A stretch of DNA of 64,000 bases from the NCBI GenBank assembly GCA_964016885.1, contig OZ024755.1, forward strand, positions 31,682,001 to 31,746,000, written 5' to 3'. Position numbers and translations under genes: made by a program. The notes under the pieces are model-generated. The model was given only the letters and a program-made list of their open reading frames with translations. It was not told where the DNA came from and ran no database searches. Source of the stretch: Eledone cirrhosa (lineage: Eukaryota). Below, piece by piece: positions 46,694-53,376 of this stretch; positions within the stretch are counted from its first letter, which is position 1; the number at the start of each line of letters is the position of its first letter.

Positions 46694-46766
46694 ATTCCTT
46701 CTGATGAGCGATATCAGGCGTTTCTGTTAGAATCATCTAACTTCGTGAAACCTTGGGTAATGGAAT
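46694..46766 (+). ncRNA. Type I hammerhead ribozyme motif (family A)
   Basis: attcctt-CTGATGA-gcga...tcgt-GAAA-cc-ttg-gg-TA-atggaat. Confidence 0.7.
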
Positions 46767-47103
46767 AATTATATTGTGTTGTTTATTAGATAATTAAATT
46801 ATATATATATAGTCAGTAGGCACCTCTTAACCAAATATACACCCCAATCCACTACCCCTACCCTATCCTCTCTCTGTAAAGTTCGTACCACAACATCCAA
46901 TCCAAATAAATGAGATAATGAGATCGAGATCGTGTAGGTGTCACGACAAAAAAACACACAGTTCGGATCTAGCTGTCGAAACGGCCGCAGCTCAGCCGTC
47001 ACGGTCCTGACTCTTTTCCTATTACCCACTCTACTACCCTAAGTATTGAGTACTCTGGTGCGTTATGGTCCACCTGGTATCTTACCACACCCTCTTTGTT
47101 ATA

Positions 47104-47158
<55 letters not shown>

Positions 47159-47329
47159 TGAAGAAAAAGGCGGCAGAGACATAAAAAATTTTGATAGTTA
47201 ACTTAGTATTTCATACTTCTAAGTAACTCAAGTACTTGTATATGTCACTGTTATAACTAATTATACTAAACTCGTCCTATGGACTGAGTACTCTTACCCT
47301 TGGATATTTCTACCAAACTTATACTACAG

Positions 47330-47374
<45 letters not shown>

Positions 47375-48337
47375 ATATATATATATATAGTACGCAGGTG
47401 TATTGTGGAGGAAAAAAAATGTCATTTCCGTCAGTTATGGAGGACATTTGAAATAGTTGAACTGATTAATAATATAAAGGGAGGGGCAAAAGTTAGGTGT
47501 TTATTGCAACATGAATATAACTTGTGTAGATTTTATAGAGATATTTCAGATTTAAAACTATATAGTATGACACACATACCTTCTTGGTCATACTAACAGG
47601 CCATTGTGTGTGTGTGTATATGTGTATGTGTGAGAGAGATTAAAACACGAGTTAAATATAAAAAACTTAAATATATAAACAACAACAAAACAATGATAAT
47701 AACGTGAAATCTGAAGATTTTTACCTTAATGATTAATACGTATGTTTAAATTGAAAACAAGAGTCCTTGTATGATGTAGTAGTTTAGTTAGAAGTCACCT
47801 GTCCAGTAAGTTACAGGTGCGCTGCAGTCACTTTAACTCATCAACAGCTAAGGGAAGTAACTTAACACTTATCAAACAGGTAGTATTTCAGCTTAATCTT
47901 ACAAACTTGAACGAGCTTAAATGTCTGCTGGGTATTATAGATTTCGCAGTTAGCCAGTCCACAATATATATATATAGAGAGAGAGAGAGAGTCGGGACCA
48001 GACGGCTGAACTCGTGCCGTTGCAACAGCTAGTACCATAAAAGATGAAGTTAGAAATAGCACGGAAAATATATTTAAGGGTCTGTTTTTTTTTTTATCCT
48101 TTCTTTGATTCGTCAAAGTGACATTATTGAAAACATGAGAGGAACAATTCTTTAAAAAAAAAAGTTGTATAATGTATATAAAGTATATAAAGTATATATA
48201 TATATATGCAAAAGTTCTATTTAAATTGTTGGGATACAACAAGCAAACACTTTTATAACTGATATAAAGCACTCGACAAGAAATTGGAGTAAATATACGA
48301 TATTAACAAATGGAAAATATATTTATAAAACCATATC

Positions 48338-48402
48338 TATTTTATTATACATATTTCAAGGATACCATGTTAAATTATGGTATGCTTTCATCAGACAAAA
48401 TA
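48338..48402 (-). ncRNA. Type I hammerhead ribozyme motif (family C)
   Basis: Minus strand: tattttgt-CTGATGA-aag c ataccat aatttaac atggtat c ctt-GAAA-tatgta-TA-ataaaata. Stem I is 8 bp; stem II is 3+7 bp. Confidence 0.78.
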
Positions 48403-48700
48403 CAATATATACCAGTTTTATAAATAAATTTTAACATACCCTTTCAAAATGCAACCGTTACTTTTGGAAGACATCAGGATATATATATATATATTGTTAT
48501 ACTTTGGGAGGGTCATATTGCCATAAAGAAACACACGCACCAGTTGGTTTCACTCCAATTTATTATAAATTTCCGGTTGGTTGGTTGGTTGGTTCCACAA
48601 CCGGACGGTTGTTCATATATTGTCAAAGTTCTTTCATCACACATTCTGTGACCTCTTCAATGACTGGGGATTCTTCTCCTTTGTTCTGTCCTACGCCATC

Positions 48701-48731
<31 letters not shown>

Positions 48732-48875
48732 GTGTGTGTGTGTGTTTAATTATATTGGAATTTACCAATATATCTCCCGTTAAAGATTATAGAAGCTCAA
48801 TGCTAATCAGTATCCTTGGTCAAGCAACCTCCGTGGATTATGTTATGGCATGAACTGCAGAGCTCAATATTTTAA

Positions 48876-49806: not shown

Positions 49807-49933
49807 AATAGGAAAAGAGTCAGGACCCCGATGGCTGAGCTCCGGCCGTTTTGACAGTTAGATCCAAACTGTTCGGATCTAATTGTTGAATCGGGCGGAG
49901 CTCAGCTGTTGGGGTCCTGACTCTTTTCCTATC
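49807..49933. repeat. Imperfect palindrome of a short dispersed element (single arm also at ~46962-47105)
   Basis: ataggaaaagagtcaggacccc ... ggggtcctgactcttttcctat, axis at ~49870. Confidence 0.85.
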
Positions 49934-50321
49934 ATCATCATCATCATCATCGTTTAACGTCCATATTCCACGCTTGCATGGGTTTGGACGGGAGTTTTCC
50001 CACTTGAGGCAAGAGCGGTTGTCTTGCTCGCATAGGACTGTCTGGCAGGTTTTCTACGGCTGGATGCCTTTCCTAACACCAACCACATTTACAGTGTGGG
50101 ACTGGGAGGCTTTTACCGTGTTGCCTACACGGCCACATTACAGCGTGGACTGTGTGTTTTTTTGTTGTGACACCTACACGATCTCATTTGTTTCGGCCTG
50201 GATGTTGTGGCACCAACATAACTTTACATTGAAAGGGGTGGTGTGGATGGGGTGTGGGTGGTGGGACGGGGGTGTATTTTGTTAGAGGTGCCTACTGACT
50301 GTAGTAGGTTTTACTATGTAT

Positions 50322-51254
50322 TTAGGTAAGGCAGGTCTTCTCTATTACTGTGTAGCGCCAAAGATCTCGGTCCAGTGACATTGTCTTGGTGAGGTGAAAG
50401 TGTGTGAGGTCGGAGTTTATCAGCTCATCCCAGGTTTTTCTGGGTCTGCCTACTCCGTGGCTACCGTCTATCTTTATTGCCCTGCACTTTGTTATACAAC
50501 TATCGTCCTTCATGCGCATCACGTGACCATACCAACGTAGCCTTCTCTCGAGTAAACAACATCTGATCCCTCTTATTTCTAATTTTTCCCTTAGTTCGTT
50601 TATGCTTTGCCGTTCACGTATATTACTATTACACATCCAGCGGAGCATGCAAGCTTCGTTCCTCTCTAGTCTGCGTCTATCCTCTGCACACAATGCCCAG
50701 GTCTTGCCATGCAACATTGCTCGTCATATGCAGGCATCATACAGCCTGCCTTTCATTTTTAGGGAGAACCCTTTAGCGGCTAATAGTGGTATAAGTTCTC
50801 TGAACTTTTTCCATCCAGTTCTGACTCTAGCTACTGTACTTTCAGAGCACCCTCCCCCACTGCTGATTTTGTCACCCAGGTAACGGAAGCTGTCCACTAT
50901 TTCTATAGAACCATCTGTGCAATTGAAAGAGCTAGTATTCTGTGGGCACTTGCTGCTACTTATTGCACCAGAGCACCGGCCACATATAAAATCTATGTTC
51001 TTAGTTAGCTTACCTGTGATCCCACTACATCTTTTATGCACCCATACTTTGCATTTGGGACATAAAATGGAGTTTCTACCTACTCCTTTCCTACACACTG
51101 AGCATGGCCATTTCCCGGATGGGACCGGTGCCCTATTTTCCTTCCTACAAACTAGAACTTTAGTCTTAAACAGGTTAATTTTAAGGCCTTTTGATTCTAG
51201 GCCATGCTTCCATGTTTGGAATTTCTTCTCTAGTTCGGCCATTGATTCAGCTAT
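50322..51254 (-). mobile_element. RTE LINE 3' part, lightly decayed
   Basis: Two long ORFs in different frames: Cys-rich finger, [33 protein letters not shown]. Confidence 0.9.
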
Positions 51255-52490
51255 ATATATATATATATATCATCATCGATTAACGTCCATCTTCCACGCT
51301 AGCAAGGGTTAGATGGGTTTGTCCCATTTTGAGGCAAGTTGTATCGGGTGACCGTGTCTCGCTCATATAGGGGTGTTTCTGGCTGGATGTCCTTCTTAAT
51401 GCCAACCACATTTACAGTGTGGGCTGGGTGCTTTATATATAAAGATATATAGATATAGAGAGAGAGAATAAGAAAATGCAAAGTAGTTGCAGATGTTAAC
51501 ACATTTGAAAACATTTTACTTCTCAATGTGCTCAGTAAATCTCTCATCTAGCTGCTTGGCATCGACATATGAAACTTCATATATTATTCAATATATTTTT
51601 ATGACAACATACTGAGATAAACATCAGTGGAATATAGATTATCAATTTATATTTAATCCATTCTGTGTAAAGAACAGACAAGACTTTCCATTACTATTGG
51701 GGCTTTCACTAAGCCTTGTAGTATCAGCTAATATTATAATAGGATTAAGCCAGTGTTAATTACAGGAGATTTGTGTGTGTGTATATATATACAGATACAT
51801 AATTATATATATATACACACATATATATAGAGAGAGATACATATATACAGATATATGTATATATATACATACATCAACATCATCATCATTTTACATCCGC
51901 TTCTCCCTGCTTGCAAGTTACATATATATATACATATATATATATATACCAGTGGCGAAGGGTAAGAAGATTAACCTGGGCATGCAGTCCAATCGCCATG
52001 GCGGAAAGTGGGGCTCTGCAGCCTTAACCCCCCCAAATGACCCTCCCGGTCAAAGCCACATGTAGTGTTATCTAGTGTGTGTGTGTGTGTGTTATCTTTT
52101 TTTGTGTCTACGATTTAGTAAGCAGCCAAAATTCTGCTTCCTTCAACCGACGCAATTGATCAACTCAAGATTCTGTAACACATGCACTGCATGCACGGAC
52201 CCTTCGCCCCTGATATATATATCTTATATATATATATATGTGCTTATATATTTATGTTTATATATAAATGTGTGCGTATATACATACATATATATATATA
52301 AGCACATGCATATATACCCACACATACACACATACACACATATATATCATTGTTTCAGCTTGTGACACACAAGCTGAAACCACTGTGTCGGTCAGGATTT
52401 TACACATCTCTGTACCTCCGACTGCAATGGTCACCTCTGTCTCAGCACTGCAGACTCTATATATACATTATATGCACACAAACACACATA

Positions 52491-52819
52491 TCATCATTTT
52501 ATGTCCGCCTCTTCCTGCTTGCAAGGGTGGAACGGGAACTGATTCTGGCTTGATTTCTACAGCTGGATGCCCTTCCTAACACCAACCTCATTTACAGTGA
52601 GTGCTGGGTGCTTTTTTGCCGTGGCACCTCCACGACCACTTTGCAGTGGAATGATAGGGACCCCAGTCCCTATCATCTCATTTCTACAGCTGAGTAAGCT
52701 GGAGCAATGTGAAATAAAGTGTCTTGTTCAAGGAAACAACACATCACCCGGTCTGAGAATTGAACTCACAACCTTTCGATTGCAAGGCCAATGCTCTAAC
52801 CACTAAGCCATGTGCCTCC
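52491..52819 (-). mobile_element. Full-length tRNA-derived SINE
   Basis: Reverse complement of 49135-49481 with few differences; a third, internally deleted copy is at 54104-54385. Confidence 0.85.
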
Positions 52820-52927
52820 TCATATATATACATATGAAGTATTTCCGTAGGAATGGTAAAGGAAAGGAGAGTGCTCTATGTAAGCTACAGAGCTATTTAA
52901 TTATGTAATAAACAACATAAGACAATT

Positions 52928-53002
52928 ATTCCATTTACCAAAGGTTTCACGAAGACAGACAAGCCCAACAGAGACATCTGAAATCGCTCATCAGAATGAA
53001 AA
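52928..53002 (-). ncRNA. Type I hammerhead ribozyme motif (family A), left arm of palindrome
   Basis: Exact reverse complement of 53031-53105. Confidence 0.75.
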
Positions 53003-53030
53003 TTTAATATGGATGTAAGAGCATATTAAA

Positions 53031-53105
53031 TTTTCATTCTGATGAGCGATTTCAGATGTCTCTGTTGGGCTTGTCTGTCTTCGTGAAACCTTTGGTAAAT
53101 GGAAT
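53031..53105 (+). ncRNA. Type I hammerhead ribozyme motif (family A), right arm of palindrome
   Basis: tttcatt-CTGATGA-gcga ttt caga...tctg tct tcgt-GAAA-cc-ttt-gg-TA-aatggaa. GUA cleavage triplet; predicted cut after 53097. Confidence 0.78.
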
Positions 53106-53376
53106 AATTGTCTTATGTTGTTTATTACATAATTAAATAGCTCTGTAACCTAGATAGAGCACTCTCTTTTCCTTTATCCTTCCTACGGAAATACTTCATA
53201 TATTACCATCATTTAACGTCTATCTTCCTCGCTAGCATGGGTTAGACGGGAGTTGTCCCACTTGAGGCAAGGTTGGTCGGATGACCGTGTCTCGCTCGTA
53301 TAGGAGTAACTGGCAGGTTTTCTACAGCTGGATGCCCTTCCAAACACCAACCACATTTATAGAGAGAGAGAGAGAT

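Follow-up and report, generated by a model that had tools for sequence, protein, structure and literature searches.

The window studied here is a 64-kb stretch of contig OZ024755.1 (positions 31,682,001 to 31,746,000) in the 3.0-Gb genome assembly of Eledone cirrhosa. Named protein matches are from Argonauta, two species of Octopus, Hydra and a bryozoan; along with the likeness of one ORF to a published Octopus element, they suggest an octopod-like cephalopod. Between its positions 46694 and 53201 lie five type I hammerhead ribozymes (HHRs), all with the core CUGANGA ... GAAA ... NUH in type I order. They had been proposed from the sequence alone, with NUA cleavage sites, for the interval 46.7-53.1 kb; a descriptor scan recovers every one of them, with the cleavage triplet GUA in three and AUA in two. 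These five motifs very probably mark the 3′ ends of 5′-truncated copies of Penelope-like elements (PLEs), most likely of the Hydra clade, in TA microsatellites, and the ribozymes are predicted to cut only as dimers. The sequence-only reading overlooked further ends, of families D, E and G in the same span and of family F at 160-405. The ends, grouped by family, are listed below (pLTR, pseudo-long terminal repeat; tail, the optional extension beyond the nearer of two fixed 3′ ends).

46433..46799, + strand: family A2, 5′-truncated PLE 3′ end without tail (5′ boundary approximate, in low-complexity sequence); HHR 46694-46766, core start 46701, cut after 46759, GUA
46958..47103, + strand: family D end with tail, 3′ half of the HHR only
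47223..47330, + strand: family G end, truncated inside the HHR
47988-48036: likely family D arm
48208..48482, − strand: family B, pLTR and ~90-nt tail of an autonomous Hydra-type PLE; HHR 48338-48402, core start 48394, cut after 48346, AUA
48491-48700, − strand: family E end, decayed HHR core
49491..49706, − strand: family C, untailed 3′ end of a non-coding 1.92-kb PLE derivative; core start 49602, U.U at 10.1/11.1, AUA
49727..49932, − strand: family D, inverted short arm and tailed arm, HHR 5′ half missing
52832..53011, − strand: family A1, left arm of an inverted pair, 62-nt tail; HHR 52929-53001, core start 52994, cut after 52936
53022..53201, + strand: family A1, right arm, tailed; HHR 53032-53104, core start 53039, cut after 53097
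1..63, − strand (second cluster): B-clan end; the adjoining stretch completes the HHR
160..405, − strand (second cluster): family F end with tail; core 374, 63-nt helix II region, helix II base imperfect
460-504 (second cluster): inverted family C tail stub
698..875, + strand (second cluster): untailed end of a family C subfamily; core 764

Our first descriptor found four of the five cluster motifs, missing one because the family C HHR has a U.U pair at the base of helix II (at 10.1/11.1), which is the norm within that family; the A2 HHR has a U.U within helix I. A relaxed descriptor found all five and, in the 64-kb window, one further complete HHR outside the cluster span, with its core at 764 (+). 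A second cluster at 1-870 had been announced as well, and it is real: it comprises the core at 764 and an HHR at 1-30 that is interrupted by the window edge and completed when the neighbouring stretch is added. The suggested comparison with shuffled sequence came out clearly, as the four motifs seen with the first descriptor compare with a mean of 0.027 in 300 dinucleotide shuffles, and the six seen with the relaxed one with 0.02 in 100 shuffles. The count of five motifs thus stands, but they do not form five units: 52832-53011 and 53022-53201 are the arms of one inverted pair, 97% complementary, which accounts for two of them and whose transcript is predicted to fold as a 176-bp duplex burying the HHR. 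Similarly, copies do recur some 48 kb apart in the two clusters, but each was inserted independently, the likeness being just 76% for B and 83% for C.

In a set of fetched loci with 275 distinct HHR contexts, we distinguished 38 HHR families. Helix II folds better than its shuffles (median z −3.2; z < −2 in 27 of the 38 families). The palindromic character of helix III, already pointed out from the window, extends across the 38 families, in which 33 of 39 inner pairs of loop III, lying outside the requirements of the descriptor, are self-complementary, against 0.38 by composition. In a B-clan alignment of 13 rows (after leaving out one row and three outliers), 95.5% of the cells are paired, and seven of the nine helix II pairs change on both sides; all seven two-sided changes in the clan fall in helix II. 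Covariation, too, had been named as a check. Judging from these sequence patterns, the HHR structure is constrained across families. By computed energies, helix III stands at +0.4 to +4.7 kcal/mol as a monomer and at −2.2 to −8.2 kcal/mol as a duplex; being unstable in the former and stable in the latter, it leads us to predict dimer-dependent cleavage, as in other PLE hammerheads. Dimers of PLE hammerheads were reportedly the subject of work by Luense et al. in 2017.

These data dispose of the idea that AT-rich DNA produced the motifs by chance or through misassembly. It could draw on the unremarkable folding energies of the monomers and on the Rfam scan of the window, a check that failed to back the motifs: no hammerhead family was matched at E ≤ 1, just microsatellite-driven microRNA matches and the heads of two tRNA-like short interspersed nuclear elements (SINEs). 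It is refuted by the shuffles, by the compensatory changes and by exact whole-genome motif counts, which give 75,512 for a B-clan pattern, 3,424 for an A-clan pattern and 12,734 for a family of 310-bp repeats found outside the window (see below), against 0 for the reversed control of each of the three.

A first look yielded 1,700-2,200 genomic candidates for each family. The copies stop at either of two fixed 3′ positions, differ in where they begin at the 5′ side, often have inverted partners and are flanked by TA; the tail equals the stretch downstream of the pLTR. This is the anatomy described for PLEs. Counted from the cut, the two 3′ ends lie at +48 and +138 nt in family B, at about +58 and +200 in C, and at +36 and +100 in A; the optional tail and the inverted 5′-truncated copy occur in all three. 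TA runs adjoin the ends in most copies of the ten families examined, in line with the (TA)n preference put forward earlier. In a background sample of 40 evenly spaced 10-kb stretches (400 kb), 22 of 42 motifs have an inverted partner within 4.5 kb, 7 are in tandem and 13 are solo. The units of 150-370 bp, taken at first for mini-elements, are truncation products of longer elements.

It is very unlikely that these units are self-contained non-LTR (long terminal repeat) retrozymes of 150-370 nt, transcribed, cut, circularised and re-inserted. Like such retrozymes, they bear a type I HHR and are AT-rich and, at window scale, non-coding; an origin from and mobility through PLEs has been proposed for retrozymes in the accessible parts of the published accounts (Cervera and de la Pena 2020, PMC7229834; Li et al. 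2026, bioRxiv 10.64898/2026.07.22.740005). Real 310-bp retrozyme arrays that fit the published type fully are present in this genome outside the window, and family C forms same-strand tandems with a 1.92-kb period. The published monomers, however, are tandems of 150-450 bp (PMC7229834; bioRxiv 10.64898/2026.07.22.740005), unlike the window families. The five motifs all lie outside short tandem arrays, A, B and C were never seen as short tandems, and B and C copies reach variably 5′, over more than 1,480 nt. Family B, moreover, is coding: it continues into an open reading frame (ORF), which largely refutes the retrozyme explanation for B.

The Penelope connection, by contrast, holds, as family B ends an autonomous PLE whose ORF encodes a reverse transcriptase (RT) and a GIY-YIG endonuclease. 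The full element at locus L176 consists, in order, of an inverted pLTR and tail, a pLTR (1945-2153), its tail, the ORF (2284-4509), a 3′ untranslated region (UTR) of 1.7 kb and a second, 99% identical pLTR (6242-6450), that is, a partial tandem with a period of 4,297 nt (4.3 kb). The ORF (P0092) runs over 742 amino acids with no stop, its ATG being located ~40 nt past the tail. It includes the motifs RWR, DKT and YRDD, a CxCx5C linker and the VVY..YVG of a C-terminal GIY-YIG domain, which lacks the cysteine pair inside GIY-YIG but has a CxxC before E and a CxH after N. The protein shows every motif on the published list for Hydra PLEs. A homologue matches RVT_1 at E 9e-6, with a score below the curated cut-off. 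The B copy in the window is 88% identical to the upstream pLTR and tail of L176, and 99% to other genomic copies. With the B protein, 100,839 first-look candidates were obtained genome-wide, and all 80 genomic matches that were scored are 90-100% identical. A conserved in-frame TAG suspected in the B ORF turned out to be the normal stop.

A second Hydra-type ORF, P0093, with an open frame of 785 amino acids, was observed at ~255.688-255.697 Mb of G000:C3 (L190, L199 and L198). It is contained in a 3,692-nt inverted duplicate of 100% identity nested inside an A element, which may be a very recent insertion or an assembly artefact.

The family C unit is 1,918 nt long and non-coding, without an ORF, and forms a partial tandem on the same strand (L096), in which the tail is the start of the next unit. 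An exact 34-mer of C occurs 1,390 times in the genome. Of 30 copies picked by an exact 34-mer, 10 are tailed and 20 untailed by their alignment ends, which we use because a pattern count of tailed copies (7 of 30) is an undercount. Family C likely borrows a Hydra RT in trans, being PLE-like but non-autonomous. The proposal of a non-autonomous system thus fails for B, with its own ORF; only C is non-coding, and its unit is 1.9 kb.

The body of family A consists of more than 1 kb of microsatellite-rich non-coding DNA. In 7 of 10 loci, chosen because their inverted pairs were far apart, a sister family that is 80-83% like A over the last ~115 nt has fragments of a Hydra-type ORF on the same strand as an HHR arm; these fragments bear the same Hydra motif marks. 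With this ORF ahead of it, the sister's 3′ UTR is also microsatellite-rich and 65-72% identical to the A body, a figure that is partly due to low complexity. Family A thus likely ends a sibling Hydra element. A CCHH-type ORF near some A copies was considered as the ORF of A and rejected, as it belongs to family E. The expected linkage to PLE ORFs was therefore found for B but for neither A itself nor C. Likewise, partial tandems that form pLTRs were seen for B and C, and not seen for A.

Comparisons with known systems refer to the accessible parts of the published accounts. The Hydra clade of endonuclease-bearing (EN+) PLEs, which includes Hydra-1_Obim of Octopus bimaculoides, bears HHRs and targets (TA)n (Craig et al. 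2021, PMC8557442). The families described here share with it a single ORF with RW(K/R), DKT, a CxCx5C linker and, at the C-terminus, a GIY-YIG without CCHH, an HHR close to the 3′ end, (TA)n targets, inverted 5′-truncated copies and the U.U at the helix II base (family C), common in published Hydra HHRs (PMC8557442). The ACC..GGT helix III of the A clan is like that of Hydra-1_Obim, which the N-terminus of another ORF, P0094, also resembles by eye (PMC8557442). Unlike the published elements, the B unit measures 4.3 kb with a 1.7-kb 3′ UTR, the tails are 62-145 nt long instead of 30-40, the HHR sequences of A, B and C differ from the tabulated ones and copy numbers are very high (PMC8557442); neither a 1.9-kb non-coding derivative nor a conserved tail hairpin (see below) is mentioned for the Hydra clade in the accessible text of that paper.

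Minimal type I HHRs of metazoan PLEs number ~2,000-9,000 per genome (Cervera and de la Pena 2014, PMC4209133). Similar features are the short palindromic helix III, the long helix II, a mostly solo occurrence in truncated PLEs, opposite-strand pairs 100-700 bp apart and a U3-A8 core variant; by analogy, dimer dependence and low activity would be expected (PMC4209133). By contrast, three patterns alone give 91,670 motifs here, and G10.1-C11.1, highly conserved in metazoan PLE HHRs, is found in 10 of our 38 family representatives (PMC4209133).

Several observations weigh against the assignment to truncated Hydra-clade PLEs with dimer-dependent ribozymes. The monomers do not surpass shuffled sequences in folding (z −1.1 to +0.2), and the covariation counts are drawn from related sequences, partly picked by the descriptor. 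Over 28 copies of family C, the core differs by 0.029 and the remainder by 0.057; the core is thus more conserved, as had been anticipated, but the contrast is weak, as expected for copies decaying neutrally after insertion. The B ORF has no sequence match in Pfam, NCBIfam or PDB, the label “Hydra clade” rests on motifs and likeness by eye, and the 4.3 kb of B exceed the “<3 kb” stated for Hydra, a typical and not a strict size. The two Hydra ORFs compared with family C bear no resemblance to it. For A, upstream extension of 7 copies did not reach an ORF, read-through of the tail in 8 copies, chosen by a pattern that also admitted plain TA flanks, gave no ORF link, and neither 30 long-body loci nor 9 extended stretches contained a consistent same-strand ORF.

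The absence of an ORF from the C unit, together with its lack of a match to Hydra proteins, and the non-coding A body are also what one would expect if both A and C were non-autonomous PLE derivatives moved in trans, with only B autonomous, an account that differs from ours for A alone. We think this possible but on balance doubtful, given that the similar 3′ UTR of the A sister has a Hydra ORF ahead of it and that nested insertions have fragmented the A copies, which are older (77-95%).

If the ends are indeed those of 5′-truncated PLE copies, the following course of events may be envisaged. The endonuclease would nick a (TA)n tract, and the RT would begin copying at either of two sites, flanking the conserved tail hairpin, within a multimeric transcript that has not been processed. 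Usually it would stop early or switch strand, leaving a stump of 150-370 bp, which would always carry the HHR because the latter is only 36-62 nt before the nearer start site. Short products would then dominate among the insertions, and clusters would build up by nesting, since TA stays on both sides of each insertion. In the parent tandem, two HHRs would pair through their palindromic helices III and cleave the RNA into single units. Lacking a partner, the window's solo copies and those on opposite strands are likely inert, and so is the motif of the inverted pair, where the 176-bp duplex buries the HHR. Unprocessed RNA as the template is in line with the fact that none of 30 C copies starts at the cut (by the exact 34-mer after the cut; four inverted pairs give both arms). 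Cleaved RNA as the template, suggested by two truncated C copies at the cut among the top-scoring loci, was ruled out by this count. Beyond several of these ends, the elements continue with alternating TA, for 5 and 5 nt in B, 4 in C, 4 in E and 2 in A (0-3 at the C tail), which hints at primer annealing and is suggestive only.

The Poseidon PLE of Anolis (PAc) provides a biochemical comparison: its protein nicks AT-rich DNA, two internal RT starts define a tail, and in vitro, insertion does not depend on cleavage by the HHR (Frangieh et al. 2024, PMC11167929). Both the pair of fixed ends in our families and the finding that none of the 30 C copies begins at the cut agree with PAc. PAc, however, belongs to another clade, its ORF begins inside the HHR and not, as in B, with an ATG ~40 nt past the tail, and it starts without target homology, whereas several ends here run on with 2-5 nt of alternating TA, again suggestive only (PMC11167929).

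The tail hairpin has a stem RCUC...GAGY followed by RC and lies a few bases inside the tail (in the A1 right arm of the window, it begins 42 nt past the cut). The motif was spotted by eye before it was tested, which makes the test post hoc. In 9 out of 22 families, half or more of the long ends have it, with a summed shuffle expectation of 0.15; the counts are 19 of 23 long ends for the B clan, 23 of 26 for C and 13 of 22 for A, where it takes a compensatory G-C version. In 13 families, two of them with near misses, it is absent, and one of the nine positives (a single copy) may be due to chance. By eye, we also recognise it in three of the six new Hydra consensus sequences, Hydra-2_Amil, Hydra-1_Ajap and Hydra-2_Ajap, in the accessible part of the published set (PMC8557442); Hydra-1_Crog has a variant, Hydra-1_Amil stops before the tail and Hydra-1_Obim shows no clear match. 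The hairpin is a candidate RT binding signal and appears to tie A and C to Hydra-type enzymes. No report of it was found in the titles and abstract openings of the literature.

The 310-bp tandem HHR repeat mentioned above (L296-L305, e.g., G000:C1:1239856-1244285; L201 and L205) forms arrays that are arranged head-to-head in 9 of 10 fetched loci, taken from the first 100 listed matches. In all nine, one end has a 33-nt tail and the other is without a tail, and (TA)n adjoins in eight. These arrays display the insertion signature of PLEs on a retrozyme; their tail contains a shortened hairpin, which fails the strict pattern. The retrozyme literature, in its accessible parts, proposes PLEs as the mobiliser from co-occurrence and pLTR homology (PMC7229834; bioRxiv 10.64898/2026.07.22.740005). 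Neither this signature on a retrozyme nor inverted retrozyme arrays were reported in the titles and abstract openings of the literature, and the accessible parts of these papers do not report the signature either.

We are evenly divided over a broader proposal, in which the exceptional HHR load of this genome, probably 140,000-300,000 motifs, would stem from Hydra-clade PLEs; the hairpin, shared from coral and sea cucumber Hydra elements to the present families, would be an RT-recruiting signal that sets the two start sites; non-coding passengers (the 1.9-kb C and the 310-bp retrozyme) would borrow it; and the arrays would be retrozymes inserted by PLE RT acting on circular or multimeric RNA. 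If true, the arrays would be direct genomic proof of the insertion of animal retrozymes by PLE RT; they bear on what the accessible literature presents as an open question, namely, which autonomous element moves animal retrozymes. The hairpin is a candidate for the RNA signal that loads the RT, and mechanistic study could draw on Hydra-clade ORFs that are young and intact (L176 and the second family with its 3.7-kb inverted duplicate, 100% identical).

As to the genome-wide load, the 42 motifs in the 400-kb sample compare with 0-1 in shuffles. The exact counts set a floor of at least 91,670 motifs, or 31 per Mb. Raw extrapolation from the sample gives 315,000 (bootstrap 195,000-449,000). The three exact patterns account for 28 of the sampled motifs, which would predict ~210,000 where 91,670 were counted, a 2.3-fold overshoot; because of it, we calibrated a low estimate (91,670 × 42/28, ~137,000). 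The total number of HHRs is likely between about 137,000 and 315,000. For axolotl, 126,247 motifs in 28.2 Gb (4.5 per Mb) are given in the accessible part of the source; the density here is at least seven times higher, by a different descriptor. The HHR count of Schistosoma is reportedly high as well, and we do not claim the highest known density. No genome-wide HHR count for a cephalopod was found in the titles and abstract openings of the literature, and “ribozyme” and “hammerhead” occur 0 times in the accessible text of an O. vulgaris repeat paper (PMC13282606). Pieces of Hydra-like ORFs occur in 7 of the 40 spaced stretches. With one intact-looking HHR per 10-30 kb, it may be asked how long transcripts escape cutting; obligate dimer folding is the likely answer.

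Against this background, the cluster is ordinary in the E. cirrhosa genome: four or more motifs within 6.5 kb occur in 3 of the 40 stretches, and five in 1 of the 40. Its 6.5-kb span has 20 TA tracts, the sample on average 26.6 per 10 kb and the whole window 56 in 64 kb, such that the span resembles the genome at large, within a window that is poorer in TA. That the cluster might be a selected regulatory locus, with ribozymes cutting a host or read-through transcript, we hold to be scarcely credible. Five motifs do lie within 6.5 kb between two host genes, and the window has 94 motifs per Mb, about twice the calibrated genome mean, but comparable clusters recur in the sample as stated, the motifs are on mixed strands with no cognate partner, neighbours have decayed cores, and one HHR pair is buried in its own duplex. 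What lies at this locus are the remains of repeats whose kind has been described: stumps of Hydra-type PLEs and a non-coding derivative. The question whether these families are already described can thus be answered for the kind, as Hydra PLEs with HHRs and (TA)n targets, including Hydra-1_Obim, are published (PMC8557442, in its accessible part); families A, B and C may themselves already be in Repbase or Dfam.

As regards the additional families, D is abundant, with 21-22 BLAST matches in 400 kb, mostly ending in loop II. Its complete relatives (L041, L094, L120 and L121) have a U3-A8 core, a long helix III and a GUC site, and may cleave as monomers. Other families with U3-A8 are present at loci L056, L193 and L220. 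Two complete copies of family G are among the fetched loci. At L280:957-2700, family E terminates a PLE with a different type of ORF and has its own 62-nt tail; the endonuclease of this PLE retains the cysteine pair between GIY and YIG, and by the published motif list, it is putatively Neptune/Nematis-like.

SINEs and pieces of long interspersed nuclear elements (LINEs) occupy the gaps between the HHR-bearing ends, next to elements resembling miniature inverted-repeat transposable elements (MITEs). The one at 48874-49048 has no match among the fetched loci.

46522-46632: SINE-like insert of ~110 bp within the A2 element, 17-bp target duplication, about ten copies in the window
48874-49048 and 51920-52241: MITE-like elements, palindromic or with terminal inverted repeats
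49119..49460, + strand: tRNA-headed SINE in (TA)n, bystander
50325..51220, − strand: LINE reverse-transcriptase fragments, which we take to be RTE-like, bystander
52494-52835, − strand: second copy of the SINE, 95% alike

Elsewhere in the window, a 200-base assembly gap (N) at 1881-2080 falls within a LINE fragment, and the minus strand at 29106-30258 contains helicase fragments, presumably PIF1-like and probably Helitron-derived by their translation. Two likely exons of a multi-pass membrane protein, without a Pfam match above the cut-off, are located on the minus strand at 41902-42480 and ~44415-44849. An uninterrupted ORF of 844 amino acids at 56833-59367 (− strand) specifies an N-terminal PHD-like finger and a C-terminal GNAT domain; we assume a resemblance to KAT14/CSRP2BP, and, being intronless, it may be a retrogene.

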